Assembly: GCF_028641065.1 (NCBI RefSeq)
Contig: NC_073379.1
Coordinates: 39,494,001 to 39,558,000, forward strand
Direction of reading: 5' to 3'
Source of the DNA: Leucoraja erinacea
Taxonomy: Eukaryota
DNA: 64,000 bases
Numbering within the stretch: position 1 is the first letter of the stretch; every line of letters begins with the position of its first letter. This document shows positions 2,262-61,552 of this stretch, in pieces. Below the pieces are notes generated by a model. That model was not told where the DNA came from, searched no databases, and saw only the letters and a program-made list of their open reading frames with translations. The position numbers and the translations under genes were made by a program.

Positions 2262-2480
2262 GAAGAGGGGTTTTGGCCCGAAACGTTGCCGGTCTGAAGA
2301 AGGGTTTTGGCCCGAAACGTTGCCTATTTCCTTCGCTCCATAGATGCTACTGCACCTGCTGAGTTTCTCCAGCATTTTTGTGTACCATCAAAAGAGAAGA
2401 GTCTGAAGAAAGGTCCTGACCCAAAACGTCACCTATTCATGTTCTCCAGAGATACTACCTGACCCGCAGCATTTTGTGCT
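2262..2480 (+). ncRNA. Cluster of three Penelope-type minimal hammerhead ribozyme motifs
   Basis: CTGAAGA-A-GGGTTTTGGCCC-GAAAC-GTT at 2294-2321, a partial tandem copy at 2262-2290 and a mutated copy at 2403-2430. Confidence 0.6.
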
Positions 2481-3349
2481 TTTTTTTTACTGTAGCATTA
2501 GCTCCTTGAAGTCCATTGGTAAGTGTTGCCTGGGTTTCTTGATGTCACACTCAGAAAAATGCTGCCTTGATGTTTAGATTAATGTTGTGATGGGTCTGGT
2601 GCCAAATGGTCATGGCAACATTTAAATCGAGTATCAGTGAGCTGGTTATTGAGGGTTATTGAGGAGTAAATGCTGTTTGATAACTCTGTTAACAACATTG
2701 CCTACACTTTGCTGATGGCCATTCCGTCACTGTCACAGATAGATAATGTACAGCAGGTCACATTCTTTTCATACGTTAAGTCTCTGGCCAAGGACTAAGG
2801 GAATCAAGAACTGAATGGCATAGGTTTAAAGTGAAAGTGAAAAAAATTTAATAGGGACCTGAAAGGAAACGTTTTCACACAGAGGGTCATGGGCATATGG
2901 AACGATCTGCTTGAGGAAGTAATTGATGTGGGTTCCATTCCAACATTTAAAGGGCATTTAGACAGGTGCATGGAGAAAACTGTTTTAGAGGGACATGGAC
3001 CAAATGACAGCAAAGGGTTTATTTTGGTCAGCACAGGCAAGTTAGGCCAAAGGATGTGTTTCTGTGCTATCTGACTCAATGATCCCAAGACTGAAAGCAG
3101 ACTGATTGCACTGTAATGAGCCACATTCGATTTGTCTTCCATTTTGTGGAAAGATCGGAACTGAGCCATTTTCTTTTTCGTCAGGTTGAAAATGAAGTTG
3201 TAATAATGGAATAGCTTGGCTAGAGGCGCAGCTTGTTCTGAAACACTACACTTCAGCATTACAGCTGGATATTGCGTCTGGCCCTATAGCCTTTGATGCA
3301 TCCAGTGAATAGTGAGCATTGAGTGCGGGGTACAATAAGCTGACTCTGT

Positions 3350-3486
3350 TTATTCTTCTTACGTATGGCGTGCACAACCTAAAGTTGTAGGTCAACTTGT
3401 TCTATTTGATCTTGTTTGTGCACGTCGGGTTGATTGCATTAGTCGAAACGGGGTGGACCACGTGAAGGTTGCAATCTCCCACCCCA
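3350..3486 (-). mobile_element. 3' end of a Vingi/Ingi- or RTE-like non-LTR element
   Basis: Minus strand ends ...GCACGCCATACGTAAGAAGAA, a (GAA)n-type tail; CpG-retaining. Confidence 0.35.
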
Positions 3487-3859
3487 CTGACGCTGCTTGT
3501 ACAGTGTAGGAAGGAACTGCAGTTGCTGGTTTACACCGAAGATAGACACAAAATGTTGAAGCAACTCAGCAGTTCAGGCAGCATCACTGGAGAAAATGAA
3601 TAGGTGACCTTTTGGGTCAGGACCATTCTTCAGACTGAGTGTCAGGGGAGAGGGAAACTAGAGATAAGGAAAGGTACAAAGAACAGATGAATAAAAAGTA
3701 TGAAAAGAACTTCAAACCCAGCAACAATTATCAAGCAAAGGTGAAACCCACAAGCCTTTGCTTGTACAGTCTTAAATGCTGTCAAGTGAGGAAGAATTTT
3801 TGGGTAACCATTTTAACATGTCCGAGTCAGAGAAACTAGGCCTGCTGCCAGTTTCTTTA

Positions 3860-4380
3860 TGGGCCTGTCGTACTAGGATGACCTAATCCACGAGTTTAGA
3901 AGACCCTAGACGAGTTGAAAAAAAAGTCAAGGTCGTGTGGACTCGCCGAAGTAAAAGGCCTCCTACGACTATGTCAATGACCTTCTAAGAACCCCGTCGA
4001 CCTCAGTCTTCCACACCTAAGACCAACTACGACTAGCTACGATTGGCAAATGATCATATGATAAAATGATGCCATGTTTTCATTTTTTTTCTCGGGCCAG
4101 TTACCGACCTACGACTACCATCATGACCTAACTACGACCTACCGACGAGTAAAAAGTATCAATTGTTTCCATGCCGACCTTTTTTTACTCGTGGACATTT
4201 TTTATCAGGCTGGAAAAAATGCCGCAACCTACTTGAGGCCACGAGTACGCGGAGACCACTCACGAGCATGAGGAAGAGTTTCGAAGGTCTCCTACGACCT
4301 TGTGGCGACCATGCTGCGAGTATGTCAAGGGCAAACTCGGCAGAGGTCGCCAATCAGATTGTGAAAGTGGGGCAGGGGCT
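3860..4380. mobile_element. PIF/Harbinger-like MITE
   Basis: Imperfect TIRs (TGGGCCTGTCGTACT ... AGTGGGGCAGGGGCT), TTA on both flanks, internal ACGAC-rich subrepeats. Confidence 0.6.
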
Positions 4381-4525
4381 TTAGTTTGAGGGTGTGGTTG
4401 TACTTGCCTGCACCCTCCATTCATATGATTGTTTTATGGGATAAAGAGCCTTGAGGCTCAGAACATTCTGTCAGTGTTTTGATGACTGTTCAGCAGGTAC
4501 AGCACAGGAGAGCATTTGAACCATT

Positions 4526-7120
4526 AAGTCAATGGTTCACTGATGTCAATGAAGTTGTTGCAGGCCTCAGTTAAGTCTGTTGCCTTGTCCTTAGGTAAAG
4601 TCACCGACATGTGAACTGAGTCAATGGTGAACCCTAAGTAATCCATAGTTGTGGAAGGTGTCAGCTTAGATTTAACTGGATGGGTGATAAATCCCTTTTC
4701 TCAAACAATTGTTTGGTGGCTGATACAGCTGATTTGGCTGAATCCAAAGTTTTCCCCACAATTAATATATCATCTAGGTAAGCCATGACCATATGTTTTT
4801 GTTTCCGAAGAAACGCTAGGGCTGGTTTTAAAATTTTAGTAAATAGTCTGGGGGCGGATGTTAATCCATTAGGTAGTGCTCTATACTGCCAGATCTGCCC
4901 CATCCAGTTAAACTTTAAATAACTTCTGTGATCCTTCCGTATAGGCACCGAATAGTATGCATCTTTTAAATCGATGCAAGCCATGAAGTAGCCTTTGGAA
5001 ATCAATTGTTTGGCTGTAACAAAGGTTTCCATTTTGAAATGAATATACTGCACAAATGTATTCAGTTTGGTCAAATCTATAATAATGCGGCAACCACCAT
5101 CTTTTTTGTTTTTTGTAAAGATATTTGACACAAATTCCAGAGTCGTGTTGAGTTTTCTCAATGACCCCCTTAGCATATAGCCTCTCCAGTTCAGCATGAG
5201 CTTACAGTTTTTCTTGTCGCGAAAGCACGAATGTTCGGTTCGGTACATGCTGAGCCGGAGGATAGTTTTTGTGCACAGATTCGATTGTATATCCCTGAAT
5301 ACTATGCAGGATATAAGTGTCAGTAGTTATTGCACTCCATGCCTCCCAAAAAAAGTGTAACCTACCACCAATTTGTGTATTATTTACACTTCCTGTTTTT
5401 TGGAAGGAACCAGACCCACCTACCTCCATGGTTACCAGTGGAAAGTTTATTTCTTCCTGTTCTGTCGCCGTAGAGGTTGAGGCGCCGGAGTGTGGGGTTT
5501 GCGCATCTTCCACGAAGGCCGGTCTGGGCCATGGCCTAAAAAAGACCTTTGTCCTGTTTGCCCGGCCCTTGAGCTTTCACCAGCTTCTTTGTGTCTTGCT
5601 CTGCTGGTGGGTGCGTAGGGGTGCTGTCGCCGTGTGTAAGAGGTCCTGCCCATTGCCGTCTTTATGAGCCCGACGGCTTTAGCCTCATCGTCAAGCTCTT
5701 TTACCTGTTTTGACAGGTTGCCCCCAAATAGTAATATTGGTGGATCAACAACGCAGGGTCCTGTGACTCTGCCCGGCTCAACCTGCGGACTCGGGAACTG
5801 CGGACTCCGGCTGCAGGAGGCGGCTGATCGGGAGGTCCAGGCCGCTGAGGAGGAGGATGTTCACCGTCGGGGTTCGGCGTCGGCGTTCCACTAGCCCGGC
5901 GTGAGGGCCTGAACATCGGGCCACCCGGGGCGGCGACTGCGGGTGCTCGGAAGGCCCCGACCACGGATGAACATCTGGGAAGATCGGAGGGGAGGCTGGC
6001 TGGACAATGGTGCCTTCCTCACCTTGGTGCCACTGTGTTGTGTTGTGTCGTGGACTTTCTGTGTGCTTTTTTTTAAATTCTATTTTATTTTTTTAATATG
6101 TTTTAATATTTATTATTTATTTATTTTATGATACTGACTGTAAAGAGAAATTCATTTTGTTGTCTCTAATTGAGACAATGACAATAAATTTGAATACAAT
6201 ACAATACAATACAATTAGTACCTCCAGGTTTGCACAGCCCTGCAAACTTGGGGTTTAAGGCTGGGTGGATGGCGTTCTTCCTGAGACTATTAATCTTGTA
6301 CTGCGTATTGCAGAATAATGCCAGAGTGTCTTGCTGTGGTTCCGACATCTCCTTTCCATTCACTGACCGGGCAAATGCTGTGATCCCTGCAGTCAATAGT
6401 TTTAGGATTTTTTGAAGCTTGACCTCCTGGCTTCTGACTCCCGCTCCAATGTATCCCAGAATGCAACTGTTCACCACGGGAACGTTGAGAGATACACAAT
6501 TTACCGGTGCCAAATATTTGGCAGTAGTGTCCATCACAGCCTGTTCTTGTAGTGGTTTAAATGAGAGGTAGTCAATACTAGATGCTAATTTTAGTTCTAA
6601 TGGCTGTCCAGTCTGCTCTGGTTGTGCAAATTTGGACACCACTTCCAGCAGGGTTTCTTGTTTTTGCACCCCCTGCACACTTGTTGTTTCTTCAGCAAAC
6701 CCCTCTTCAGAGCCAGCCCAGAATTGGCTCCTAGTGCTCCCCTCTGTCGAGGGAGATGCACTATGCAGCCCTGGACATGGTGACTAGACTCCATCTCCCG
6801 GAGTTTGTCACGGTGGAGCACCTGCTCCATAAGCCGCTCCATGCGCCCAAGCGATCACGGTCGCAAGCCGCCCGCGGCATTCCCTCGCAGTCCAACTCGT
6901 CTGAGTCAACGGCCCTGTCAGTCTTCCGTTTGGCCTTCCCGCCCGGCCGTGGTGTTGATCTGGCCGGCGCAGGTGCCAAGTCGGGCACAGCTGATCGCAC
7001 TATAGACGATTCTGGTGCAGTCGGCCGCTGCTGGCTGCCCGCAACTCCGCGGTCCTCCCCAGCCAGCTTTATCGCAGCCCTTGTGGACTTCTTCGTTTTG
7101 TCCATAGTTTCCCCCTGTAA
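4526..7120 (-). mobile_element. Truncated DIRS-group (tyrosine-recombinase) retrotransposon: gag-like ORF plus RT
   Basis: RT ORF 4661..5248 (KKDGGCRIIIDL..FKMET..IDLKDAYYSVPI..LPNGLTSAPRLFTK..YLDDILI), upstream GGRLHFFWEAW, and gag-like ORFs 6166..7105 continuing as LLFGGNLSKQVKELD. RNase H and recombinase regions are absent. Confidence 0.85.
5747..6215 (+). mobile_element. GC-rich non-autonomous retroelement (3' part) inserted in the DIRS gag
   Basis: Interrupts the gag frame; ends in a stem-loop, TGACAATAAA and (AATAC)n. Confidence 0.65.
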
Positions 7121-7181
7121 TACAGGGGGAAACTATGGTGTCCAAATTTTTTCCTTCTAATTAGAATGTTGAAAGCTTTAA

Positions 7182-7375
7182 TATTTTGAAGCTGTTTTTT
7201 AAAAGGTTAATAACTTGAGAAATATAGGTTGAAATGCGACGGGAAGATATGTATCCGGTCGGGGGAGAAAATGTGAGTAGCACGTGTGAAAATGGGAAGG
7301 CTGGGGCCAAGCGTTTGGAAGAAGATACAAATTAAGGAGATGAAAAGAAAGTCAACATAACCCTGGCTCACACAG
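7182..7375. repeat. 194-bp direct repeat, copy 1
   Basis: Matches 9455-9648 with two visible mismatches. Confidence 0.95.
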
Positions 7376-9454
7376 TTATTTGTATTCATCAAATACTTTT
7401 CCCATCTATCCTTCGAGATCTTTATCATTAGCTCGTGTTCCCAATCTTCCCTTAGTGCTTCTGTTGAGGGTGATTCTCTATTTAATATATTATTATAAAA
7501 GTATGATATTAATTTTTGTGAATCAGCCTTAATATTCATTGCTTCTTCTAAAGGGTCTAAAAATATAGTTTGAAATCTATGTGTATATTTCTTCATAAAG
7601 TCACATACCTGTATATATTTAAAATATTGATTATCCTTCAATTTAAATTTTAATTTTTATTGTTGAAATGATAACAGTTTGCCCACTTCATACATATCCC
7701 CTACTTTCCTAATCCCCAGTCTATCCCATTGTTGTTATGTGTTGTCGATGAGAGAAGGTTTGAATGCGGGGTTGTTCAATAGTGGGGTTAGTACTGATAA
7801 ATTATTTAATTTCAAGGATACTTTTATTTGTTTCCAAATTCTTATTATATTGTGAATAATTGGGTTCTTCTTATATATTATACTATTCAATTTTATCGGT
7901 GAGAGCAGGATCGTTCCTATATCGTGCGGATAGCACTCCTCTTTCTCCATTCTTATCCACTCCAACTGCTGAATGGAACTATCCAGCCAGTACATTATGT
8001 TCTTAATATGCACAGCCCAGTAGTAATACATAAAGTTAGGTAATGATAAACCCCCAACTTCTTTAGATTTGCACAAACGCTTTTGTTGAATTCTATGTGT
8101 TCTGTAGTCCCATATAAAATGAGTGATAGTGGAATCTTTGAAAAAATATTTTGGAATATATATTGGGATCGCTTGAAACAAATATATTAATTGTGGTAAG
8201 AAAGTCATTTTTATAGCGTTAATTCTACCTATCAATGAGAGCGGAAGCGTTTTCCAAAATTTAATCGTATCATTCAGTTTATTTAATAGTGGTATAAAAT
8301 TGGCACTAAATAATGATTTGTGTCTTCTCGTAATTTGAATACCCAGATACTTGAATTTTTCTGTTGCAATTTTGAAGGGGAATTTTAGTAAGTGTCTCGA
8401 ATCCTGTGGTTTTAAAGACATAATTTCGTTTTTATTCCAATTTATTCTATATCCTGAAAAAGAGCCGAATTCCTCAATTAGTGTTAATAAGGTGGGTATA
8501 ATCGTTTGTGTATTAGTAATATATAAAAGGATATCTTCAGCATATAATTAAATTTTATTCTTTGAGTCCTTGGTGTTATATCCGTGAATATTCGGGTGAT
8601 TTCTAATCCTTTCGGCCAGCGGTTCTATCATAAGGGCAAATAGCAATGGTGATAAGGCACACCCTTGCCTATTACCCCTTGATAAGTAAAATTTTGGAGA
8701 TAGCGTATTGTTAGTTAATATTCTTGCCGTAGGTCTATCGTAAAGTAGTTTAACCCATCTAATAAAATTCTCTCCCGTATTAAATTTCAAGATTCAAGAT
8801 AGATTTAATTGTCACATGTGCCAGATGGCACAGTGAAATGAATTCCCATACAGCCATACAATAAAAATAAACAGGACTCAACACACTATAGAATTTAACA
8901 CAAAAAACATCCCCACACAGCAGAATCAAAGTTTCCCACTGTGTGGCAAGGCACCAAAGTCAGTCTTCTTCCTCCACTGTTCCCCGTGGTCAGTGGAGTG
9001 CCTTGTATAAATACTGCCATTCTACTTGATCAAATGCCTTCTCTGCATCCAACGTGACAACTGAAATATCTTCATTGTCCTCATTATGAGAGTACATTAT
9101 ATTGAAAAGCCTTCTCAAATTATTAAATGATTGTCTTTTGGGTATAAATCCCGTTTGATCCATATTTATTAAATTGTTAATATAATTATTTAGCCTTCTA
9201 GCTAGAATCTTTGCTAAAATTTTCTGATCCGTATTTAGAAGTGAAATAGCTCTATAAGAACCCGGTTCATCTAAGTCTTTATCTTTTTTTGGTATAAGCG
9301 TTATTGTTGCTTCTGCTAGGGTTTCTGGTAGTTTATTTTCAGTATAAGCCTGCATGTATAAATTGAATAATCTTGGTACAATTGACTCCTGACATTTTTT
9401 ATAAAATTCATTACTAAAACCGTCTGGTCCTGGGGTCTTCACATTTTTCAGTAT
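7376..9454 (-). mobile_element. Internal L1-clade LINE ORF2 (RT) fragment, frameshifted, with a nested insert at about 8788-8995
   Basis: KTPGPDGFSNEFYK, SYRAISLLNTDQKILAK, DQTGFI, LDAEKAFDQVEW, GNRQGCALSPLLF, FKYLGI, GGLSLPNF. Confidence 0.9.
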
Positions 9455-10386: not shown

Positions 10387-10684
10387 TCAATCCTCAAGAT
10401 TCAGAGAGGAAATATTTAGCTCTCCCTGTGTAGCAATTAGTTTGCTCTTCAAAGGTTTTGATTTCTGCAATGCTGTGTCATTTTCATGGGTGTTTAGATG
10501 AGTTGAACTCTCATTGGATTTGGCTTCGTCATTAACATCACTGCCGTCATCACCATTGAGGTCAGAGTCATCAGTGCTATCAGCATCTCCATCCTCATCG
10601 TCTTCGCTTCCCTTTACGCAACCTCTTGTGCCAGGATTTGTTTCAGCTTCATCTTGTTTGGTTTGGGTTTCTGAAGAAGTCAAC
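10387..10684 (-). CDS. C9orf85: C9orf85 homolog, terminal coding exon (acidic low-complexity tail)
   Basis: Pyrimidine tract plus CCCAG acceptor. The phase-2 join CC|G continues in frame into ORF 10387..10683 (LTSSETQ...SEDDEDGDADSTDDSD...NLED*), consistent with the acidic C-terminus of the family. Confidence 0.8.
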
Positions 10685-10732
10685 CTGGGAAGTGGGTGAG
10701 TAAAGCTTTATTATTCAGCAAGCATAAACCAG

Positions 10733-10767: not shown

Positions 10768-12887
10768 AATTGCATTTATGCCCATGGTCATTGAAAGACA
10801 ATTCTTTTTTTTTTTTTTAAGAAGAATAGTCACAGTTGCAAGAGCAACTTGCATAAATTAGGATCCACAAAGAGAATGCATAAATAATAATCAGAACATT
10901 GGATTTTAGACTATTTCTTATATATTTGTATGTTCAAGGAAAGAGGGTATGACTGACGAATCCAGCATTAATTGTCCATCTTCATTTGCTCTTGAAGTTA
11001 CTGAGCCGGCCTTTTCAGAGGCAGTTACGAGTCAACCAGACTGCTCTGAGGCTGAAGTTTCATGGAGATCAGACAGGGCAAGGACTGAAGAAGGTTTGAA
11101 GAAGGGCCCCGACCCTAAATGTCACCCATCCTTTCTCTCCAGAGATATTTTCTGACCGCTGAGTTACTGCAGCACTGTGTTTATTCAGTGTAAGGACACC
11201 AGATGTTTCATGAAGATGAAGAAGGGTTTTCTGATAGTCTGACTGTTTCAGAACTGATATGAACTTATTAGTCTTGCTTAATTTTAAATTATTCCGCTTT
11301 AGTTTATACACTGTTTAATGGTGTTTTGCATTTTCCCATCATATTGTTTTAATGATCATTATCATGTATACTATGTATACTGTGAGGTTCAGGTGACCAA
11401 GGAATTCCATTGCACCAGTATATATAACAAACTAAATCTAATGTGATCTAATTGTGTAGATGGACCTCGATAGAACACACTGATTCAGTGGAAGACATGC
11501 CTTTCCCAGGATTTAGGCACCAAGCATCCACTAGGGAGACCAACTTCCCACATAATAAAGGGGGAGCTGGGTATTGTTATTTTTTCAAAACCAAGAAAAG
11601 CTTCAAACTTTTTCTAAGGTTTATTGTGACCTCACCTACAGCTCAGAAACTCCTATTTATGCACAGGCTCTAATCACAAGGGATTGGACCAGTTCCAGAC
11701 CATGTGTGTTTCTCAGACTCTGCTGTCATCGTTGTTTACATTGCTGGTAAGGCAGGAACAGGTACCCGTGTTGCACAGCTGGGGTCAGTGGTCCTTGTGG
11801 TTTCTCCCAGACACGACCCAGCATCAACCCGAGAGGCTGCAGGCTCTCCGGATGCAATGCTGGAACCCCCGCAGAACTGGCTCTGCACAATCATAAGAGA
11901 TAGGAACAGGATAAGGCCATTTGGCCCATCAAGTCTACTCCGCCATTCAATCATGGCTGATCTATCTCTCCTTCCTAACTCCATTTTCCTGCCTGCCCCC
12001 ATAACCTGACACTCCTTCCAATTAAGAATTTATCCACAGAGCCATAATCACAGCTAGGATTTGGGAGGGAAATCTCAGCCAAGCTCTGTTCACTGGTATT
12101 TCTCTGCATAAGTGAGAGCAGTTTCTACGACCTAGGAAGGATTTCTTTGGGAGTTACAGAATAATGTAGAAACTTGCGTAGGAAGGAACTGCAGATGCTG
12201 GTCTACTCTGAAGATAGACACAAAATATTGGAGGCAGCATCTCTAGATTGAAGGAATGGGTGACGTATCGGGTGGAGACCCTTCTTCAGACTGATCAAGT
12301 AAAGATGTGGGAGTAGGAGCCTGGAAAACAGAAGTTATTGAAGAGACGGCATGTGAGGTGTCTTGGACCTAGGTCAGGAGGGATTGGACTGGGGGGGGAG
12401 GGGGGAGATAGCATGGAGTCGAGTTATGTGGAAATTAATTCAGTGGGACAGGAGCAAGCAGAAACAATGGGTCTGCCCATTGCCCAGTTATGAAAATTGC
12501 CCAGTTATGTCAAATTCATAGAGGAATACAATACAGAAAAAGGCCCTTCGGCCCACTGTGTCCATGCTGAGCACGAGCACAAGCGACAAACATGCACGTA
12601 TCAGGAAATTTGGGAAGCTGTGCAAACCACAATTCCCAGATTACCCGGCAGCTATGACCTTTCATGGAAGCAGTCATAGAGTTTGGTTCACCAGCACTAC
12701 TGAACGAAATCTTCCCAATGAACGTGTGCCTGGGTCCTTTAAAAAAAAAAGGACAGTGCTTGCTCCAGGTGCAGTAAACCAATTCCATTCAGTTGTGAGA
12801 AACATCTGCCAGTGTGTTAAATATGAGCCTTTTTTTAAACGTTAATCGAGGTTTCACAAGCTTTTAATAAAATATTTCCTTTTTTGA

Positions 12888-13115: not shown

Positions 13116-14169
13116 TATTCTTGCCAAAGCCTCTCGTGCAAAGCCTCAGTTCTGCCCTTGGCCTCAACACGGCACTTCGCCTCAATACAGCCTCTCTAAC
13201 AGCCCTTTTGAACCGTTCTGAAGCTGGGAAAGATTAAAGGAAAACACAAATGCTGGAGTAACTCAGCGGGTCAGACATTATTTGTGGAGGGAATGGACAG
13301 CCAATGTTTCCGGTCGGGACCCTTCTTCAGACTGGAATTTTTTCAGAAACTAAAGGAGGCTGGTTTACATCAAGCTCCTATCAGCGCTTGTTGGGTGGAC
13401 CTTGTTGTGGCTTTACACCACAATGGGACTTACACCTGTCACAGGGCCTCTACATAGGATGGCGTCTGTGAGATCATTCTCCATACAATACAATATATTT
13501 GTTGTCATTTCAACCTCATTGAAGTTCAAAAGAAATTTGGTTTCTGCAGTCATACAACAAGAAAAGAACCAAGACACAAAACAATTTATACAAATATCCA
13601 TCACAGTGAATCTCCTCCTCACTGTGATGGAAGGCAAAATCTTATCTCTCCCCTGCACTCCCCATTACCTTTGGTATCCAAGGGCTTTAACCAAGAACAA
13701 TATTTGGTAATCACACTGCTGAGGGTGTTTGGTGTTCACAAATCATTAGTCACTTTCATACATTGCAATGGTAACTACACTGAGAAAAGTACCCATGACT
13801 GTACACTTTGGGTGAGATCCTGAAATGCAATCCTTCATAACAGAATAGTGGAACAGACCTTCAGAGCCAAATAGACTTCTATTATGCTCCCAAAATATAT
13901 ATATTTTCAACCAAGACTGGGCATTGAATTTGAAATTAAAACATGAATTCAAGAAAGGATAAAGAGCCCTGCACTACACGATATCACAGGAAGTCCAGAT
14001 GATGTCACATCGTTTGCCAAGAACCGACTATTTTACAATCAAGATGACCTTAAACTCCAATTGGAAAACTAACAACTGGAGAAACAACACGATTACCTAA
14101 ATTCCTCACAATTCCGGCACATGTAAACTGAGTGTGCAAGCTACGAGTTGCTGGGTCTACCTACTAGAT

Positions 14170-17100
14170 TATAGCAGGAAGCATGTGAAGGCTCTATTGA
14201 TGGGGTACAGCTGGAACGGCTGGCAGGAGTATTTGCAGACATCTTTAACCTAGTCCAAGCTGAGGTTCATGCCTACTTTACAAAGACCACTGTCATCCAG
14301 TGCCAAAGAGTAACAAGGAAACGCGCTGAAATGCCAAGCACCTGGTGGCTCTGACATCCACCATGAAACATCTGACATCAAGTATGAAGTGCTTTGAAAC
14401 GCTGGCCAGGGTGCACATCGACTCCAGCCCCCCAGACAGCCTTGATCCATTGCCATTCGCCCACCACTGCAACAAGTCCCGAGGACATGCCATCTCCATG
14501 GCCGTACACTCATCCGTGGAACACCTGCACAAGGACTTCTGCATCAGTCTTCAACTTATTGACTATAGCTCTGCCTTCAGCATCAAACTTCGTACAAGAT
14601 TCCTCACTTCACTCCTGGACCTAGGACTCGGATGCAACCTTCCCCTGCCCCACCCCTGTCTGCAACTGGATCCTCAACATCCTGACCTAAGAACTGCAAT
14701 CTTTCCCCCATATTAAGTATCAACACGGATGTACTTTTCCCAGCAAGGATGTACTTTTGCCCCTAACAATACTCCCTGGAATCTAATTGTTGTAGAATAG
14801 TAGTTGTCCCTGGACCAGGTGTTGTGAGACTTCAGACTTCTCTGCCTCGTGTCCAATGGTAGCAAGAAGAGGGCATAGCCCAGATTGTAGGAATCTTTGA
14901 TGATAGATGCCACCTTCTTAAGGCAGCACCTCATCTAGATGCATTCAATGGCGCGGAGGGCTGTGCCAATGGTAGCCTGAGCTGCGTTCACCACTCTCTG
15001 CAGCCTCTTGCATTCCTGTGTTTTGAAGTTGCCTTACCAGGCCATGGTACAACCAGTCAGGACACTTTCAACAGTGCATACAGTATCCTCCAGAATGTTT
15101 GAGTCAAAGACCCATAATTTATTTATTTGCCTCTGTACTCCGCATTTAGAAATTTGTAATAGAAAAAAAATCACATGTGGTTAAAGTGCACATTGCAGAT
15201 TTTATTAAAGGCCATTTTCATATATTTTGGTTTCAACATGTAGAAATTGCAGCTGTGTTTACACATAATCCACCCCCACCCCCACCATAATGTTTAGGAC
15301 ATATGGCTTCACAGGCGTTTGTAATTGCTCAGGTGTGTTTAACTGCCTCCTTAATACAGGTATAAGAGCTCTCAGCACTTAGTCTTTCCTACAGTCTTTC
15401 CATCACCCTTGGAAACTTTTATTGCTGTTTATCAACATGAGGCCAATGAAAGTCAAAGAAGCCATTATGGGACTGAGAAACAAGAATAAAGCTGTTAAGA
15501 GATATCAGCCAAATATTAGGCTTACCAAAATCAACTGTTTGGAACATCATTAAGAAGAAAGAGAGCACTGGTGAGCTTACTAATCGCAAAGGGACTTGCA
15601 AGCCAAGGAAGACCTCCACAGCTGATGACAGAAGAATTCTCTCTATAATTTAAATAAATCCCCAAACACCTGTCCGACAGCTCAGAAACACTCTCGGTGT
15701 CAGATGTGGATTTGACAATGATCCCTGTCCCCAGAAGACATCATTAACAGAAATATAGAGGCTACACTGCAAGATGCAAACCCACTGGTTAGCCGCAAAA
15801 ATAGGATGGCCAGGTTACAGTTTGCCAAGAAGTACTTAAAAGAGCAACCACAGTTCCGGAAAAAGGTCTTGTGGACAGATGAGACAAAGAATAACTTATA
15901 GCAGAGTGATGGCAAGAGCAAACTATGCAGGAGAGAAGGAACTGCCCAAGATCCAAAGCATACCACCTCATCTGTGAAACACGGTGGTGGGGGTGTTATG
16001 GCCTGGGCATGTATGGCTGCTGAAGGTACAGGCTCACTTATCTTCATTGAAGATATAACTGCTTATTGTAATAGCATAATGAATTCTGAAGTGTATAGAC
16101 ACATCCTATCTGCTCAAGTTCAAACAAATGCCTCAAAACTCGGTGTCCGGCAGTTCATTCTACAGCAAGACAATGATCCCAAACATACTGCTAAAGCAAC
16201 AAAGGAGTTTTTCAAAGCTAAAAATGGTCAATTCTTGAGTGGCCAAGTAAATCACCTGATCTGAACCCAATTGAGCATGTCTTTTATATGCTGAAGAGAA
16301 AACTGAAAGGTACTAGCCCCCAAAACAAGCAAAAGCTAAAGATGACTGCAATACAGGCCTGGCAGAGCATCACCAGAGATGACACCCAGCAACTGGTGAT
16401 CTCCATCGCAGACTTCAAGTAGTCATTGCATGCAAAGAATATGCAACAAAATACTAAACATGATTACTTTCATTTACATGACATTGCTGTGTCCTAAACA
16501 TTATGGTGCCCTGAAATGGGAGGGACTATTAAATTTAATGACAATTAAATTGACTCTGACTGACTCTGACTGACTCTGACTATGTATAAACACTGCTGTA
16601 ATTTCTACATGGTGAAACCAAAATGTATAAAAATGGCCTTTATTAAAATCTGACAATGTGCATTTTAACCACATGTGCTTTTTTCTATTACAAATCTCAA
16701 ATTGTGGAGCACAGAGGCATATAAATAAATGATGGGTCTTTGTCCCAAACACAAGGAGGGCATTGTATGTAGAGGTTTGAGAAGGAGTACAGGAAGGAGA
16801 TAGAAAGTTTAGTGTCATGGTGTAAAGACAACAACCTCTCCCTTAATGTCAGCAAGATGGAGCTGGTCGTCGACTTCAGGAACCAGGGTAGAAAATGCAC
16901 CCCAGTCTGTATCAATGCTGTATTGAGAGCTTCAAGTTTTAAGGTAAATACATCACCACCAATTTGTCTTGGTCCAATCGCAATGACACTGAGGCCAAGA
17001 ATGCACACCAATGCCTCTAATGCCTTAGAAGGCTAAGAAGGTTTGGCATGTCTCCAAAAACACTAATTTTTATACATGCACCACAGAAAGCATCAACAGG

Positions 17101-47019: not shown

Positions 47020-48410
47020 ATAATCAAACCCGCCAACATGTGCCGTGGTAATCTGGCACGCTGACCTCTACTGGGGTAGAGGCCAGGCAACAACTCTCAG
47101 CCACCACCTCCTACATCCTTGGACCATGATCGCATAGACGAGCACCAGGGCATAATATCACCATTTCATTACTTCCAGCTGTCTGCCCTACAAAGCCTCC
47201 AACCTTATAGATTCCCAGACCTGCGCGTCCTGATGTTATCTTCTCCCCAAAATCCACAAACAGAACTGCCCTGGCAGACCCATTGTTTCTGCTTGTTCAT
47301 GTCCCACTGAATTAATTTCCACATTCCTCGACTCCATCCTAACTCCTCCTCGGTGCTATCTCTTGCACCCATGCAGAACTCATTGACTTCATCAACTCCA
47401 CGACTAATTTTCATCCTGCACTCACTTGGACAATCTCCGACATTTCCCCTACCGTTTCTAGATCTCACCGTCTCCATCACAGGAGACAGACTATCGACTG
47501 ACATCTATTATAAACCCACTGACTCCTATAGCTATCTAGACTACGCTTCTTGTCCCCTCAATATTCCACAGCTCCGCTCGTACTCCCCCTCCCCCCATCC
47601 GTCCCACAGTCCCACATGCCCTCACATTCCACCTCATTAACCGTTGCATACAGCACGTAATCCTCTGACATTTTCGTCACCTCCAACGTGATCCCGATAA
47701 TAGCCACCTTACCATCTCCACCCCTTTCTGCTTTCCGCAGAGACTGTTTCCTCCGCAACTCTCTGGTCACCTCGGCCCTTCCCACCCAACCCACCCCAGG
47801 TACTTTCCCCTGCAACTGCAGGAGTTGCAATGCATGTCCTTATACCTCCCTTTCGACTGTCCGAGGACCCCGGCAGTCTTTTCAGGTGAGGCACAGATTC
47901 ACTTGCATCTCCTCCAACCTCATCTACTGTATCCACTGTTCCAGGTGTGGTCTCGTATATTGGCGAGACCAAGCGCAGGTTTGGCGATTGTTTCGCTGAA
48001 CACTTCAGCTCATTCTGCCTAAACCTACCTGATGTCCTGGTTGCTCGACAGTTTAACTCCCCCTCCCAATTCCACGCTGACCTTTCTGTCCTGGACCTCC
48101 TCCACTGTCAGAGTGAGGCCCAGCGCAGATTGGAGGAACAGCGCCTCGTATTTCACTTTGGTAGCTTACTCCCAGCAGTATGAACATTGACTTCTCTAAC
48201 TTCAAGTACCCCTTGCTTTCCCTTACTCTACATCGCCTCTCCCTTCCCAGTTCTTCGACCAGTCTTGCGTCTCCGACTACATTTTATCTCTGTCCCACCC
48301 ACTCCCGTGACATCGGTCTGAAGAAGGTTCTCAACCTGAAATGTCACTCATTCCTTCTCTCCAGAGATGCCACATGTCCTGCTGAGTTCCTCCAGCATTT
48401 TGTGTCTGTT
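47020..48410 (+). mobile_element. Degraded Penelope-like element (RT remnants, GIY-YIG, terminal hammerhead segment)
   Basis: LPFLDLTVSITGDRLSTDIYYKPTDS, YIGETKRRFGDCFAEH, EAQRRLEEQRLVFHFGSL; CTGAAGA motif at 48318. Confidence 0.9.
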
Positions 48411-49844
48411 CCGAAAGCAAGCTGTGAAGCATCCTAACAAAAGTAGTTGTAATGAGCTGAAAGTCGCTATACTAATAGAGATCTTTTATTTTGCTTTGCA
48501 GTTTTATGATACTAGTAGCCCTCTGGAACTCTGTCAATGACCTTGTGTTAGCATCATTATTTCAAATGCTGTTTAGTGTCCAGTCAAGCTGCACCCAGCC
48601 TGTGCGTAGCTACGGCTGCATGAATATCTTGTGTTATTCCTTCACTTGGGAATTCTGCTTAGCTTGTATGAATATTTTGTCACATCAGTAGTTTTGGATT
48701 AAAATGTTGTGCTCATTGGTGGATGCCATGTGCTTGCAGGACCATCAGATACTTTCACTTTATATCAGTTTGATGTAATGTTGGTTGTTGAGAATGGAAG
48801 ATCAGCGAGATGCTTTTAAAGGTTTGGGAAATTGTAGATCTTGGACCTCAGTAATGAAGACACAGTCGCCAAAAGTGTAATGTTAAGATAAGGATGAACT
48901 AGAGCTAAAAACTTGAAGGAGTATTGAGATCTCAGTCATGGAGTTGAAGGAACTAATAAGGAAGGGGAGAGACAAAGTCATCCAAAGAGTTGTGCCTGAT
49001 TTGGATGGATCAATTCTACATGATGAAGAAAGTAAACTAACATTTATCTGTATCTCGATGGATGAAATTAATAGTGCAGAATATGTTTACTTGTATGCAA
49101 TAATTATTCAATAGCTATCTACTAATAATTGGATGGTGATGATGATTTCTTCACAGGGCTGAACACAAGATTAATGCTATTTTCTTTTTAAATAGTGTAC
49201 TCAATTACAATAGTATAGTTATTGTAAACCTTAACCTCAACCGCTTAAACACGGCTCTAAGTGCATTCTGCTTTTGCGTCTCTGCATTGTTAATGTGATT
49301 TCTGTAAAAAAATCACTCCCATTTCAAATTTTTTCTCAATTGTTGGAGGTGCAGGGGAGGGATGGGGACAGGTGAAGAAAGAGCCAAGAGGGGATGAATG
49401 GGCATTGGTTTTTATGTCATCAGTTCCTGGTACCTCAAATTCTGCAAGGACTTGTTGCAAGTTCAGAATGTGTGATTTTGTTTCAAGTATGTTGCTTCAC
49501 AGGACCTGCTGCTGATGAGTCAGACTGCAGCAAACTTTATGCTTTTCTGAAGCTTGTCCGTTGGGTGTGCCCTATCATAATTAACTGCCATAGTAATAGT
49601 TTTGTCATGTCTATAAACACATTTGGGTGTTGACAGTAAGTAATTACAAGAACAGCACCTGGAAATTTGGTAGATGGTGAAGAGACCTCTTTGGGTGTTT
49701 TATTTCTATTGTGCTTTAAAAAAAAATACAAATTTTAATCCAAACCAGCAAATTAGAGCCTAATGTGTATTTGACCATTGTTTCAGGAAGTGATTATATG
49801 ATGGCCTTTTGCTTATCCATTCTTTTCTCAGCACATCATCCCTT

Positions 49845-51289: not shown

Positions 51290-51425
51290 TAAAATCTGAC
51301 AATATGCACTTTAACCACATGTGATTTTTATTTTATTTTTTGTTTATTACAAATCTCAAATTGTGGAGTACAGAGCCAAATAAATAAATGATGGGTCTTT
51401 GCCCCAAACATTATGGAGGGCACTG
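51290..51425. mobile_element. Solo TIR fragment of Tc1 family A
   Basis: Ends CAAACATTATGGAGGGCACTG|TA. Confidence 0.85.
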
Positions 51426-53664
51426 TAAAATTCTTATATTTCCTCACAGGGCACGAGTTCATCAACAGACACCCAGAGCGCACACGATCTAACTCGCCCA
51501 CTTGCCTCTCGTACAGGGCAAATTACAATCACCAATTAACCTGTCAGCGCCTCTTTGGGATATGAGAAGAAACCAAGCAAACGGGAAAAACCTATGGTGT
51601 CACATGAAAAATGCACAAACTCCGTACGGAAGGTCTGGATGGAATCTGGGTCATTGGAGTTATGACGTAGCAGCACTGCCCGTGTGCCACTATAGCACCC
51701 TAAATTATTCAGTTGCATATTTTCAGTTTAGTTTTCTTGTCACGTGTACCGAGGTACAGTGAAACTGTACTGTTTGCACTTTGATTTTAAATAAAGTGGG
51801 CAGCTTATCACACATTAATTAAAATAGCCTTTTTACCTTTCCCTATAATAAAATAAGTTTCTGAAGTAATGCAAAAAACATGGAATTTATACTTGGGGTT
51901 TTTCAAATGCCCAGTGGATGGAATAATGTTACGTTTGACAAAAATAAGATATTGCTTCCCTCTTCTGAAGACTCAGTTATAGTTTCACAAAAAATCAGCT
52001 GCTTGCTCTTGTCTCAATGATTCAGATGCAAGATCAGATGAATGGAGGGCATTAGAGTCTCTCCAACCCTGTCCCCTGAAACATTACAACAGATCACAAA
52101 TTCAATATTGATAAAGAGTCTGTAATTTCAGGATCCATTTTGTCTTATAGCCTTGTGCCACTCAAGCTGAAAATAGTTGGCCAAGAGAAGACTGACCAAT
52201 GCATAGTCAAAGTAAATGTAAACAAATATACCTGGACTTCAGTGTTTTATACAACGTGTGGCTCCACACTTTCGATGTAAAAGATTGTTGGTGGGAGAGC
52301 TTCGATGAATAGCCTCAGCAGGATACCTCCAGGTTGAAATAAATTGGATAAATGGATCAACTCTGCAGCTTGTAAGTTTAAGTAATAAACTTGTTGGCTT
52401 TAGTTATGTAAACTATTTAAACTACCTCTTTAATATAGAATATGAATACAAAATTAACTGGACAGATTTAGTAAACAGTAATTTATTTGTGCAGTGAAGT
52501 TGCAGTCGCTTCCTTCACAATAATAAAGTATTTCAATTGTTAAAAATATAATCTTAAACCTCAAAAACAACTGAAACTTGTCAATTTAAACATCAAGATC
52601 TAAGGATTCCATCCCGTAACAGATTCAAAGACAAAATAGTGCAGATTTTGGAAACCTGAAAGGCAAGCAAAAAATGCTGAAAATACTTGGGTCAGGCTGC
52701 ATTTGTGGAGAGAAATAGAATTAATGTTTCAAGTTATTGATCTTTCATCCTAATCAGATTCAACCAGAAGCTTAAATCTTGCATTTTCTGAAAGCAGGCA
52801 AGAATTATAGAATTCTGGTGATTTCAGCTTTTCAGACTAATGACTGTCAGGTCTCAACGTGCAAAAGATTTTAATACATGCAAATTGAGATTCATCCATT
52901 TTGCAAATAGTCTTAAGTGGTCAAATAATGTTAAGCGGTTTCATTTACTGGACTGCAAAGAGCAAACGGAAGGATGCATATTAATATTTAACCAGATGCT
53001 TCAACACATAACATAATGCGTATTGCTCTTCACACAAGCATCAAAATGACTAAATCCAATATGAAATAAAAACATTAATGATGTTATATCTATAAAAAGC
53101 CTTGAAATGTTTTATCAGATTTTGTACAGCACAAACTAACAATGCATGATGTTTGTCATGCGGAAAGGCTTTACACTTCCTTGCCTATTATTTCACATGC
53201 CTGCATCACTAAAACGTTGCACAGGAATTTGCCTTTTGCCCCTTGGGAATTAACTTAAGTCTGGAAATAACTTCAAGGACTTTCTAAAGAATCCAATCAA
53301 TCCATGTCAGTGTTTATACTTCACATGAGTCTCCTCCCACCTTATTTTGGGTCTCAATATGTGCTTCTATTCCTCCATGCCTTTACAGCTTTGTGATATA
53401 ATTCCTATGAAAACATTCTCATATTACAGCATTTTGAAATATATTTACCACCAAATACCCTATTTAGCAAATGTATATAGTTCTAAAATATATTCATTTT
53501 TTCCGCTCCAATATAGCTGCATCTGCAAATTTGATGTTTTATAATATCTATTTTTTAAATATATGAATGGTTTATAAATGTGGCATTATTGCTTATGAGA
53601 TGTCATTTTCCATTTTCTGCTGCTTCAGATTAATCCATTACATTCTGCTTTAAGTGTAAGGTTG

Positions 53665-56006: not shown

Positions 56007-56545
56007 CAGTGCTCGAAATTAATGGTTGCCCGGGTGCCAATGGCAACCTAAAGTCCCGCCGGGCAACCTAAAAGCCGTGCCATTTTGCCCAGCTTGGCAA
56101 GCACCCGGGACACCTGCCGCTCAACTCTGAGCGGGGGCCCCCTCTATCCCTCTCTGTCACTCTCTGTCTCTGCCCATCATCCGTGTCCGGGCCACCGGGC
56201 TCTGCTCAATGATCTTTGGCCGAGTCTCCGCTCTCCGGCCACTCCTCATCCGCCGGCACGGCCGGCCGTCTTGCACATGCGCATTGCCACGACCTACACA
56301 CCCTCCACTGCACATGCATACAACCACGGCCAGCACATCATCGGCCACTCTGCACATGCGCACTGCCACGGCAACTGGTCGGCGCCGGGCACTTTCTCCC
56401 TCCCTGTGCAATGAGGGAGATCTGGCCACCATTGCTGTCCAGGGAGCTGCCTCGCCGCGACCTCTGAAAACCATCGCAGAATTACTCCTTGGAACTGGAG
56501 TAAATTTTGCTTCTTGGTTTCCTGGTCCTCCAAAAATATCCAAAA
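56007..56545. mobile_element. Possible hAT-like DNA transposon end
   Basis: Begins CAGTGCTCGAAATT with repeated GGCAACC/GGTTGCC subterminal motifs; GC-rich; no second TIR seen. Confidence 0.35.
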
Positions 56546-56724
56546 AAAACCTGCCTTAAATTTAGTTGCATCTGGTTGGGTAATTATGGTAGGGTGAAGA
56601 CTATTCCATGCTTTAATTGTGCGGGGGAAGTCCATGGAGCAGTCAGCAACTCTGGATAGAAGAAATTAGGTGACGTTTTCGGTAGAGGCCCTTCTTTAGA
56701 CTCCCTCTGGTTTTAATATTTTTA

Positions 56725-58800
56725 GTTTTGGTTTTACTGTGTAGAAATTACAGCAGTGTTTATACATAGTCCTCCCATTTCAAGGGCACCATAATGTTTG
56801 GAAAACAGCAATATAATGTAAATGAAAGTAGTCATGTTTAGTATTTGTTGCATTTCCTTTGCATGCAATGACTGCTTGAAGTCTGCGATTCATGGACATC
56901 ACCAGTTGCTGGGAAAGTCGTGCTCAATTATGTTCAGATCGGGTGATTGACGGCCACTCGAATTGACCATTTTTTAGCTTTGACAAACTCCTTTGTTGCT
57001 TTAACAGTATGTTTGGGATCATTGTTTTGCTGTAGAATGAACTACCGACCAATTAATTTTGAGGCATTTGTTTGAACTTAAGCTGATAGGATGTGCCTAT
57101 GCAATTATAACCATATAACCATATAACAATTACAGCACGGAAACAGGCCATCTCGACCTTTCTAGTCCGTTCCGAACACATAATCTCCCCTAGTCCCACT
57201 TCAGAATTCATTATGCTACTACCATCAGCAGTTGTATCATCAATGAAGATAAGTGAGCCAAAACCTTCAGCAGCCATACATGCCCAGGCCATAACACCCC
57301 CACCACCGTGTTTTGCAGATGATGTGGTATTTTTTTGAGCTTGAGCAGTTCCCTCTCTCCTTCATATCAGTGGTGGCAAGAGCCCCCCCTTCCTTCACCA
57401 GCCCATTATGCAGGCGGGGAACAGGGCAAGCGTGTCTGAGTGAAATTCACACGTTGCAAAGCCAATGTGATACAGCCACATACACCGCGATGAACAGGAA
57501 GGTTGACTCTGTTATTAAGACGGTGAAAGCACATTGTATGGGAAGGGTCACATAAGTCCTTTAAAAGGGAGGGAGCGAAGGAGTGGAGACAACTTTTAAG
57601 AAGCCAAAGATACACGGCTGTGAAGCTCAGCAGACATTAACATTACCAGACGGTTATCCTTGGTTTTGAAAACTACTGCTTGTGTTTTTTTTCCCCAATG
57701 AGCCAATGAAATTCACCGGTCAGCACCGGCTACACCTACCCCAACCTTCGACCTCCTGGCCACTCACTTACGGCACGAGAATTCTCGCTACTCTACATGG
57801 CGGCTTCGTTCTGGTTGCCGCTAATTTTTCAACATTAAAAAAATTTGCGGCAACCATAACGAGGCTGCCACTAGTTCCCAGAATGCGGGAACTCCTCATG
57901 TCCATGAAGGCGACTCCCCGGCAACCACCCGCGAACATGTGGTAACCGCAGTCGTCCAAAAAATCGCCTAAGTGGGACAGGTTCATTAATATTTGTCTCA
58001 TCTGTCCACAAGACCTTTTTCCAGAACTGTGGTTTCTCTTTTTATTACTTCTTGGGAACCTTAACCTGGCCATCCTATTTTTGCGGCTAAACAGTGGTTT
58101 GCATCATGCAGTATTTCTGTTCGTGAAGTCTTTTGCGGGCAGTGGTCATTGACAAATCCACACCTGACACCTGAAGAATGTTTCTGATCTGTCAGACAGG
58201 TGTTTGGAGCTTTTTCTTTATTATAGAGAGAATTCTTCTGTCATCAGCTGTGGAGGTCTACCTTGGCCTGCCAGTCCCTTTGTGATTAGTAATCTCACCA
58301 GTGCTCTCTTTCTTCTTTATGATGTTCCAAACAGTTGATTTTGGTAAGTCTAAGGTTTGGCTGATGTCTCTAAGAATTTTAATCTTGTTTCTCAGTCTCA
58401 TAATGGCTTCTTTGACTTTCATTGGCACAACTTTAGTCCTCATGTTGATAAACAGCAATAAAAGTTTACAATGGTGATGGAAAGACGAGGCGCTGAGAGT
58501 TCTCTTATACCTGCATTAAAGAAGCATTTAAACACACCTGAGCAATTACAAACACCTGTGAAGCCATGTGTCCCAAACATTATGGTGCCCTGAAATGGGG
58601 GGGGGGGAGACTATGCATAAACACAGCAGTAATTTCTACATGGTGAAAACAAAATGTAAAAAAATGTCCTTTATTAAAATCTGACAATGTGCAGTTTAAC
58701 CACGTGATTTTTTTTTTCCTATTACAAATCTGAAATTGTTGAGTTCAGATGCAAATAAATAAATGATGGGTCTTTGTCCCAAACATTGTGGAGGGCACTG
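56725..58800 (-). mobile_element. Tc1 family A copy with nested CR1 tail (about 57105-57197) and Harbinger-like MITE fragment (about 57370-57985)
   Basis: MAWACMAAEG and MRTKVVPMKVKEAIMRL remnants; TIR ends GGAGGGCACTG|TA at 58800; the insert ends CCTAAGTGGGACAGG. Confidence 0.88.
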
Positions 58801-58809
58801 TATATAAAA

Positions 58810-60305: not shown

Positions 60306-60553
60306 GCTCACACATGCTTACAATACACAAATGCACATATATGATAAATGGGCACATGCACAATTTGCGCACAGACTGCTCAGGCAGTCCCTCTGAATAA
60401 ATTATTACTTCCCCTCTATTGTTGTTTTTTGTGGTCACTAAAGAAGCCTATGTGGAAAATTCGGACTCTTAATATGTTTGTAACTGAGGTTAATGAATCA
60501 AAACAATCCTTTACCCTTTGTAGTTATAAATGTTTTCGCACCAAGAGCGCGCG

Positions 60554-60555
60554 CA

Positions 60556-60619
<64 letters not shown>
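60554..60619. repeat. (CA)n microsatellite flanked by (GC)n
   Basis: Directly visible. Confidence 0.97.
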
Positions 60620-60621
<2 letters not shown>

Positions 60622-61417
60622 CGCGCGTGCGAGCCAGATGCCAGAGTTCTGCAGCTGCAGATATCAGCTTAATATTTTGCTTTGTTCCATAAGAATAATG
60701 TACAGATAGGCAATTATACTAATATAATGGATTATAGTCTAAGGGACCAGAATCTGCATTCTCTTCAGTAAATAGCTAATGGCTCTTAATGCTAACCCTG
60801 TGTGTCGGGTCCAGCTGGAGCAACAAATAACATTTTTTAAATCCATTTTGAAAAGCTTTTCTGTTAGATTAATGGACATGTGATTTTTCTCAAATAAAGC
60901 CAAAATATATTTTCTACTTCAACATAAGTAAAAACAAACTCTGGTGTTAAAAGAAAACGAATGAACTTTTATTTATATAATTCTTTCTGTGTGCTTTTAG
61001 GAATTCCAAAGCACAGTACAGCCAATGGAACACCTTGTGCAGTGCAGCAGTTAGTGGAGCACACTAAACTCTCATCAATGGTAGACGATCTTTGTTATTT
61101 TACTGTATTAATTGAAAGAGAGACGCTTTGCAGGGATAGCACTCCTGCTGCTCTTGTTTCAATCTACACAAAAAAAAGAATCGGGCAAGGCCTCGATTTA
61201 AGGTCTGGTGTGTGGAGAAAATTTTGGTGGCGGAGCAATCAGTTACCCATGATTGTGTTCTTTCGGTTTTGTTTTGGAGAGACTTTATGCATTATAGCTT
61301 CCAAAAAACACATTGCACTTTATAATTTAATGGGACCCACAACAGACAGGTTGTTTATTACAAGGTTTTGGTTCAATACCGACAAGAGGCATCTGTACCT
61401 AGTGCACGAACAACATA

Positions 61418-61552
61418 TGTGTAGGAAAGAACTGCAGATACTGGTTTACATCGAAGGTAGACACAAAATGCTGGAGTAACTCAGTGGGACAGGCAGCATC
61501 TCTGGAGAGAGAGAATGGGTGATGTTTCGGGGCAAGACCCTTCTTCAGACTG
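61418..61552 (-). repeat. Stand-alone Penelope terminal segment with hammerhead motif
   Basis: Minus strand CTGAAGAAGGGTCTTGCCCCGAAACATC followed by the shared tail of about 100 nt. Confidence 0.8.

Follow-up and report, generated by a model that had tools for sequence, protein, structure and literature searches.

The stretch of Leucoraja erinacea DNA described here (contig NC_073379.1, forward-strand positions 39,494,001 to 39,558,000; 64,000 nucleotides, hereafter the window) contains two exons of a DUF2039 gene and, between and around them, scattered and mostly decayed copies, roughly 100-135 nt long, of a cassette with a minimal hammerhead ribozyme motif. The cassette is the pseudo-long terminal repeat (pLTR), plus tail, found at both ends of a ~3.3-kb Penelope-like element (PLE) with a reverse transcriptase (RT) and a GIY-YIG endonuclease. 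The finding is real, abundant and of a known kind, a further PLE with minimal hammerheads, and it brings useful mechanistic statistics. One point is unusual: most copies share a 5' start directly ahead of the hammerhead, and the RNA of the element likely starts there.

Cassette copies in the window

We searched for cassettes with a nucleotide profile built from the window copies, using cut-offs of E<=1e-3 or at least 20 bits. The window holds 22 cassettes at the first cut-off and 21 at the second, 13 of these 21 on the minus strand; reversed-sequence decoys gave 0. An initial annotation of the window had listed about 20 dispersed cassettes, and all 20 of its positions land on a copy. Its entry at 2262, however, is only a partial core duplicate without CUGA, and it overlooked partial copies at 33577-33635, 37029-37108 and 52636-52736 and a tail piece at 46981-47009. 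Its coordinates were strandless, and on minus-strand copies they mark the GUC end. The profile returned as intact precisely the three cores it had named (2294, 24605 and 30801), which are 3 of the 17 window copies covering the core, and the two copies it had tied to GIY-YIG remnants are so linked (42395-43121 and 47400-48410).

The copies and related remnants are given below. Positions within a cassette are numbered from C3 of CUGA (0), with negative values upstream; ORF, UTR and TSD stand for open reading frame, untranslated region and target-site duplication.

2260-2391, plus strand: partial core duplicate (2260-2289, no CUGA), then a short young-subfamily cassette with intact core (C3 at 2294); ~14-bp TSD
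2396-2497, plus strand: cassette with an internal deletion and a broken core (G12 lost)
3503-3710, minus strand: long cassette with ~76 nt of PLE 3' UTR (another UTR type), broken core (the 3606 copy)
11093-11186, plus strand: short old-subfamily cassette, broken core
12175-12297, minus strand: long cassette with an internal deletion, unique 5' flank, broken core
13223-13336, minus strand: old-subfamily cassette, unique 5' flank, helix III palindrome broken
20587-20720, plus strand: long cassette with unique flank, between the two DUF2039 exons and antisense to the gene; ~11-bp TSD by eye
22491-22584, minus strand: short cassette without intact CUGA, between the two DUF2039 exons
24308-24425, minus strand: cassette with dead CUGA and intact cleavage triplet, 209 nt downstream of the 24605 copy
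24501-24770, minus strand: long cassette with intact core (C3 at 24632) and ~138 nt of 3' UTR up to the ORF stop
29187-29598, minus strand: PLE GIY-YIG remnant without cassette
30698-30950: head-to-head pair, with a long arm at 30698-30835 (minus strand, intact core) and a shorter arm at 30846-30950 (plus strand, broken)
33577-33725, minus strand: short cassette (33637-33725, ~15-bp TSD by eye) and an adjoining partial copy (33577-33635)
37029-37108, plus strand: 5'-truncated cassette without hammerhead
42397-43121, minus strand: 5'-truncated PLE with GIY-YIG remnant, 3' UTR and short cassette, cleavage site deleted
43351-43567: head-to-head pair, with a long arm at 43351-43488 (minus strand) and a short 5'-truncated arm at 43483-43567 (plus strand); ~11-bp TSD by eye
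46981-47009, minus strand: tail-only fragment
47350-48411, plus strand: 5'-truncated PLE with RT C-terminal and GIY-YIG remnants, 3' UTR and short cassette (broken core)
52636-52736, minus strand: old partial cassette
56626-56704, minus strand: dead-core cassette fragment, a passenger in a separate composite repeat family
61417-61555, minus strand: long cassette, unique 5' flank, broken core

The cassette as terminal repeat of an endonuclease-bearing element

The best genomic matches of the ORF-linked window copies extend stepwise upstream into a decayed ORF with the RT motifs DKG, PKIHK and YIDD, a CX4CxxC linker and a GIY-YIG domain; about 115 nt of UTR and then the cassette follow. RT motifs and GIY-YIG stand in this order in three decayed copies (loci L043, L048 and L049). 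PF01541 matched at 24.3 bits, above its cut-off, and no Pfam RT model matched the broken RT pieces. Upstream of the ORF start, a walk in the 5' direction gave a leader of about 35 nt and, beyond it, the same cassette. Because this cassette both precedes the ORF start and follows the 3' UTR, it is the pLTR at both ends of the element; loci L157 and L166 carry it at both ends, and overlapping copies give a cassette-to-cassette length of ~3.25 kb. Its 3' ends are two, near +97 and +130, and the ~33 nt between them are the known 30-40-bp PLE tail.

The element thus combines a pLTR at both ends, an inverted copy, a 30-40-bp tail on one side, and an RT followed by a C-terminal GIY-YIG domain, with DKG and a CX2-5CxxC linker before the endonuclease. 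The DKG motif and the linker are named as features of Neptune/Nematis-type PLEs in PMC8557442 (the papers cited here are represented by excerpts, and what we say of them holds for those excerpts). By the features given there, the element is an endonuclease-bearing (EN+) PLE of Neptune/Nematis type. The ORF start codon lies inside a strong match to a 5' splice donor (L168-L197), so that splicing at this site would remove the start codon.

Abundance and subfamilies

We sampled 140 evenly spaced 10-kb loci (1.4 Mb) of the 2.19-Gb genome. The sample contains 566 copies, or 0.40 per kb, and the window 0.33 per kb; in cassette density the window is ordinary for this genome. Intact cores are present in 45 of the 304 sampled copies that cover the core. 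Extrapolation gives ~0.9 million cassettes and ~70,000 intact cores genome-wide. Most copies have no ORF sequence, as had been noticed in the window, and cassettes outnumber cassette-to-ORF-start pieces by about 280 to 1 (566 versus 2). A mixture model fitted to 421 copies returned three real subfamilies (~7%, 10% and 20% diverged) and two deletion bins; short and long copies are present in all three subfamilies.

Copies start in a narrow zone before the hammerhead

The 566 copies include 239 whose start lies within the cassette and 327 that extend to at least +3; six of the latter were dropped for short flanks. The remaining 321 reach CUGA. In 135 of them the flank is unique and in 95 an inverted copy adjoins; 7 are in tandem and 84 share upstream sequence. 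Sharing was called above a score of 27 in an anchored-extension null, which separates cleanly (1 of 60 above). The 84 sharing copies hold mostly PLE UTRs of several types and a few false members, so that at most 84 continue into UTR.

Most of the pile-up of 5' ends falls in the ~7 nt before CUGA (-7 to 0). The rate of ends is ~9% per nt in this zone, 1.1% per nt in the UTR and ~0.6% per nt inside the cassette, the last value being an underestimate since very short copies are missed by the search. For the unique copies, identity to the UTR is 0.81 at 0, 0.59 at -3 and 0.37 at -4; by around -6 it comes close to background. TSDs with a score of at least 7 directly flank 39 of 128 unique copies (null 2.6%); they are ~9-17 bp long and place the 5' ends between -14 and 0. 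ORF-linked 5' cassettes reach the core at 14 of 30 loci: judged by eye, seven start at -7 to +2, three have 10-20 nt of UTR and four have a long UTR. The initial annotation had proposed that copies start within a few nucleotides of CUGA, that their ends are non-random and that short copies insert as discrete units; all three statements hold in the genome-wide sample.

These data bear on the possibility that recombination or deletion between pLTRs produced the solo cassettes, or that these reflect random 5' truncation with alignment artefacts. Solo pLTRs without TSD in Adineta were ascribed to recombination or deletion (PMC3846280), and the UTR is of low complexity and differs between subfamilies, so that old UTRs can be missed. 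We nevertheless regard this explanation as very improbable. It is largely refuted by the TSD-defined ends of the short copies; UTR identity falls to background within ~5 nt, the null separates cleanly, and the end rate is ~8-15 times higher in the zone than outside it.

There is no pile-up of 5' ends at the cleavage site: 17 copies start at +24 to +32, compared to 40 and 24 in the neighboring bins. The lack of an excess at this point indicates that the copies come from uncleaved RNA.

No support for a separate SINE- or retrozyme-like family

The initial annotation had proposed that the cassettes form a separate family resembling short interspersed elements (SINEs) or retrozymes; on this view, the short copies would themselves be transcribed and re-mobilised in trans. 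The data do not support a separate family: the cassette forms both ends of an autonomous element and short and long copies have the same sequence within each subfamily. In none of the subfamilies does a column separate short from long copies after Bonferroni correction (a test of limited power, with 85 columns and 14-57 long copies per subfamily), and their divergence is similar. The discrete ends with TSDs are SINE-like. SINEs are defined by a head derived from tRNA, 7SL or 5S RNA, and no match to any of these was found over any copy (Rfam, E<=10).

Retrozymes would be expected to form tandem arrays of a fixed unit. Only 7 of 321 copies are in tandem, and dimer junctions vary independently. 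Cassette-leader-cassette dimers do exist, with a spacing of 166-296 nt. Their upstream breakpoint differs by locus, whereas the downstream side usually resumes at -8 to 0, as expected for template jumps at the end of a template. A fixed retrozyme unit of ~265 nt was considered and rejected: the junctions vary, and the junction from a public sequencing run has one genomic match.

The junction in question belongs to locus L176 (1386-1647), which was compared with four contig runs. Contigs of runs X6 and X9, from two studies and possibly RNA, join the ORF at about +265 back to the cassette start. The depth at this back-joint is 141-166 and is low beyond it; run X1 (probably DNA) has a similar joint, and contigs carry no information on ends or expression. 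The joint is a lead only, to a possible tandem or circular unit of ~265 nt.

On the side of re-mobilisation in trans stand, besides the discrete ends, the dimers and the excess of cassettes over cassette-to-ORF-start pieces, two further points. Every copy would bring its own promoter and +97 priming site if these are located within the cassette, and pLTR-derived retrozymes have been described (bioRxiv 10.64898/2026.07.22.740005). In addition to the sequence and junction data, the absence of ends at the cleavage site speaks against it, as does the report that the PLE protein of the anole needs RNA for ~55-60 nt past the priming site (PMC11167929), a stretch missing from short copies. Overall, we consider it improbable that short copies are mobilised as a family of their own.

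The window copy at 56672 is an exception, as it rides in a different composite repeat. This repeat (window 56540-56730, minus strand; also at loci L244, L246 and L303-L305) is composed of a tail that we take to be SINE-like, an AT linker, a cassette fragment with a shared dead core (G5 to A) and a 3' end that we take to be like that of a long interspersed element (LINE). Its copies arose by multiplication of a whole block, 450 to more than 850 nt long. All 40 scored matches (of 2286 candidates) span most of the 191-nt query, at 91-94% identity apart from the match to itself; two copies are in the genome sample.

Inverted head-to-head pairs

Pair statistics were calculated for 587 copies (sample and window). 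We counted 111 head-to-head and 6 tail-to-tail pairs, and 38% of the copies are in head-to-head pairs. The arms are long plus short in 72 pairs, short plus short in 8 and long plus long in 7, the other 24 having intermediate or truncated arms (chi-square 37, p ~1e-9). Pairs carry TSDs with a score of at least 8 in 41 of 98 cases (null 1.7%). Both arms belong to the same subfamily in 69 of 87 pairs (24 expected), and paired arms are slightly more alike than other arms of the same subfamily (0.83 versus 0.80). At the sampled loci many joints fall at +8 to +10, which is the palindromic helix II; the arms may have been joined by microhomology in this ribozyme stem.

The hammerhead motif

The claim of a Penelope-type minimal hammerhead agrees with the modal bases of the 566 copies and with the linkage to the PLE: the catalytic boxes, the extra nucleotide at 9/10.1, the G10.1-C11.1 pair and the palindromic 15.2-16.2 are all present. 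An Rfam scan gave no match to a hammerhead family at E<=10. Helix I had been described as only 2-3 bp long, and we find 2 bp: -1/28 and -2/29 pair in 82% of copies and -3/30 in 16%.

The initial annotation had named a core no more conserved than its flanks as an outcome that would speak against a ribozyme family, and at the level of individual copies this is what we observe. Conservation is 0.92 at non-CpG core positions and 0.90 at 66 subfamily-invariant 3' columns, the average over all 96 columns being 0.82. Subfamilies do not differ in the core, yet individual copies decay neutrally after insertion. Subfamily changes in helices I and II keep pairing one-sidedly (U-A to U-G, C-G to U-G). In a covariation check limited to 15 window copies, the signal is not above shuffles (139/500); on cells paired, the register beats slid versions of itself.

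Folding energies were calculated without tertiary or protein terms. In the predicted fold, a competing hairpin takes up G8/A9 and helix II, the probability of helix II being at most 0.14 in six folds. The hammerhead dimer scores -6 against -30 kcal/mol, and active folds in cis cost 15.8 kcal/mol (24605 with 24396) and 11.4 kcal/mol (2260 with 2294). Minimal hammerheads were reported to be silent as monomers and weak as dimers (PMC4209133), and a PLE hammerhead to be inactive without the PLE protein (PMC11167929). Because of the 2-bp helix I and the competing hairpin, cleavage of intronic copies appears unlikely from this modelling.

Two loci have duplicated cores. At 2260-2325 (plus strand) the duplication gives a self-contained, type III-like arrangement with a 5-bp helix III and a 1-bp helix I, and at L078 (5022-5140) the core is present in three 42-nt repeats.

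Origin of the short copies

Our preferred explanation, to which we assign a probability of roughly 60%, is that the short copies are run-off cDNAs, primed internally and extended to the 5' end of the RNA, and that an internal promoter overlaps the hammerhead. The RT would start from either of two internal priming sites, ~97 or ~130 nt downstream of CUGA, and would stop at the likely beginning of the template RNA, a few bases ahead of the hammerhead. This stop zone would be the RNA start, set by an internal RNA polymerase II (Pol II) promoter that overlaps the hammerhead. The protein would prime both nicked target strands, one at each start site, producing mirror-image pairs. The hammerhead would be copied uncleaved, and the scattered copies are predicted to be inactive without the protein of the element.

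Published data offer precedents for these steps. With the anole PLE protein, RT was primed at two internal sites, both target strands were extended and uncleaved RNA was used (PMC11167929); Drosophila Penelope has an internal TATA-less promoter (PMC2377424). Combining the two-site, two-strand priming of PMC11167929 with the known pair architecture could explain the pairs. Self-priming on an antisense template was proposed for head-to-head repeats (PMC3846280), and priming on both target strands would fit the pair data more simply. With A(-3) as +1 and motifs defined as in the table of PMC4581360, the sequence matches the initiator (Inr) consensuses TCAKTY and YYANWYY, Bridge part I (CGANC) at +18 to +22, the downstream promoter element (DPE) at 5 of 6 positions, and the motif ten element (MTE) at 8 of its first 10 letters (chance 0.004, post hoc).

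Several observations weigh against run-off to a promoter-defined RNA start. The promoter matches are post hoc and overlap bases constrained by the hammerhead; the young subfamily does not match Bridge part I. The 5' ends are spread over about -10 to 0, not fixed at one base. Of 78 unique copies with intact CTG, 18 match through -5, upstream of the proposed +1. An extra G at -4, as derived from a cap, is present in 7 of 20 copies (p=0.20); an apparent G excess at the dimer junction loci was explained by query bias and microhomology. The low rate of ends inside the cassette, with which the zone is compared, is the underestimate mentioned above. In the pairs, the agreement in subfamily between the two arms may be due in part to the age of the subfamilies, and the long arm is not significantly more truncated (p=0.14), so that priming may be from one RNA or from two. 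Long and short 3' ends are used equally (42:69 in unique-flank and 30:41 in UTR-bearing copies, p=0.64), so that nothing shows that they derive from different RNA ends. Finally, the stop zone resembles a splice acceptor, with a pyrimidine tract and CAG right before the hammerhead in every UTR type.

The last two points and the spread of the ends would also fit a pile-up at a barrier or processing point in a longer RNA, such as a bound splice acceptor or branch point, the footprint of a protein or the edge of a structure. The short copies would then be 5'-truncated products of the 3' pLTR. In the same direction point the strong donor-like site overlapping the ORF start (999 genomic matches) and the intron end in D. 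virilis, which maps to the 5' end of helix I (PMC4209133). One inverted insertion at locus L258 (1149-1645) holds two copies with an exact junction between the donor-like site ahead of the ORF start and the acceptor-like site ahead of CUGA; this is possibly a retroposed spliced or back-spliced unit of 166 nt. However, this exact joint has 4 genomic matches compared to the 999 of the unspliced pattern, and only L258 has leader before the joint. At 20 further junction loci, as at the earlier dimer loci, the upstream breakpoint varies, as expected for template jumps. The predicted hairpin would be expected to stall RT at its 3' side (+45), not at -7 to 0. We therefore consider a barrier or splice site an unlikely source of the pile-up. 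The idea that the ORF is an intron, or is back-spliced, was rejected, as it fits L258 while the other junctions vary.

A more specific form of the run-off explanation is conceivable, though we think it doubtful. The hammerhead may be dual-coded with an internal Pol II core promoter (Inr, Bridge/MTE and DPE), and most of the ~0.9 million stubs may resemble strong-stop products, in which the initial 100-135 nt of the mRNA are copied. A dimeric protein would lay them down, using each of the two RT start sites to prime one target strand. If true, this would explain the inverted pLTR and the one-sided tail of PLEs, and the genome would hold tens of thousands of promoter-plus-ribozyme modules that the PLE protein could switch on or re-mobilise.

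Host gene and neighboring features

The DUF2039 exons are at 18070-18165 and 23849-23962 on the minus strand, and the gene is single-copy. The cassettes had been placed in the introns of two genes. One gene, DUF2039, is present with two copies between its exons; a second was not identified in a scan of 150 of the 228 unmasked open frames, in which only DUF2039 scored above the cut-off. The intact 24605 and 30801 cores lie upstream of the located exons in the sense of the gene and are probably intronic. A CpG island at about 40000-41500 may hold the DUF2039 promoter, and there is a putative acidic exon at 10390-10707 (minus strand).

A long inverted repeat at 37694-38215 (153-nt arms, 79% identity) is probably a miniature inverted-repeat transposable element; its hairpin core weakly resembles MIR8007 (62.5 bits, cut-off 195). 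Another dispersed repeat, which we take to be a DNA-transposon derivative, has several copies with 84-95% identity in both orientations (15079-16768, 25398-26470, 51330-51427 and 56971-58803).

Comparison with known systems

As a ribozyme finding, the cassette is ordinary; dispersed single minimal hammerheads of PLEs have been known since 2014. Its value lies in the very large natural record that it offers of how PLEs transpose, with a 5'-end zone that predicts a transcription start and a long-plus-short rule that predicts priming on two strands. A real overlap with the promoter would give a reason for the retention of a nearly inactive hammerhead. In the search listings and excerpts that we covered, neither a fixed 5' start zone nor, for PLE pairs, two-strand priming is described.

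With the published PLE minimal hammerheads the cassette shares the CUGANGA/GAAA/UH core, the extra nucleotide between 9 and 10.1, the G10.1-C11.1 pair and the palindromic remnant of helix III. Dispersed single motifs (thousands there, ascribed to truncated PLEs) and opposite-strand pairs are also common to both; activity in vitro was low in the published cases. Here helix II has 4 bp and a tetraloop, and helix I has 2 bp, compared to 2 in D. virilis and 4-5 in Schistosoma. The ~0.9 million cassettes and ~70,000 intact cores contrast with 4,000-9,000 motifs in coelacanth and Xenopus, and the fixed 5' start zone has no description in the excerpts on those systems.

The Neptune/Nematis PLEs (PMC8557442, PMC3846280) have the same RT with C-terminal GIY-YIG, the CX2-5CxxC linker, DKG and partial tandems, as well as the head-to-head inverted copy, the one-sided tail, solo pLTRs and TSDs of ~9-10 bp at inverted inserts. 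In contrast to these, most insertions here are pLTR-only, and the rule of one long and one short arm is quantified (72:8:7).

Two internal RT start sites that define the tail were shown in vitro for PAc, the Poseidon element of Anolis (PMC11167929), and would apply here too. The extension of both target strands, the use of uncleaved RNA and the inactivity of the hammerhead without protein in PAc resemble the mechanism preferred here, and both systems have no ends at the cut site (RNA-seq in PAc, genomic copies here). PAc belongs to a different clade, and its ORF starts within the hammerhead, whereas here it starts ~165 nt downstream. No link to genomic run-off stubs or inverted pairs is made in the excerpts on PAc.

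Non-LTR retrozymes (PMC7229834; bioRxiv 10.64898/2026.07.22.740005) likewise have a type I hammerhead, a pLTR origin, dispersed monomers and occasional dimers (170-300 nt). Unlike those retrozymes, the cassette shows no fixed-unit tandem arrays and no separate lineage, its hammerhead is minimal rather than canonical, and its copies begin before the core, not at the cleavage site.

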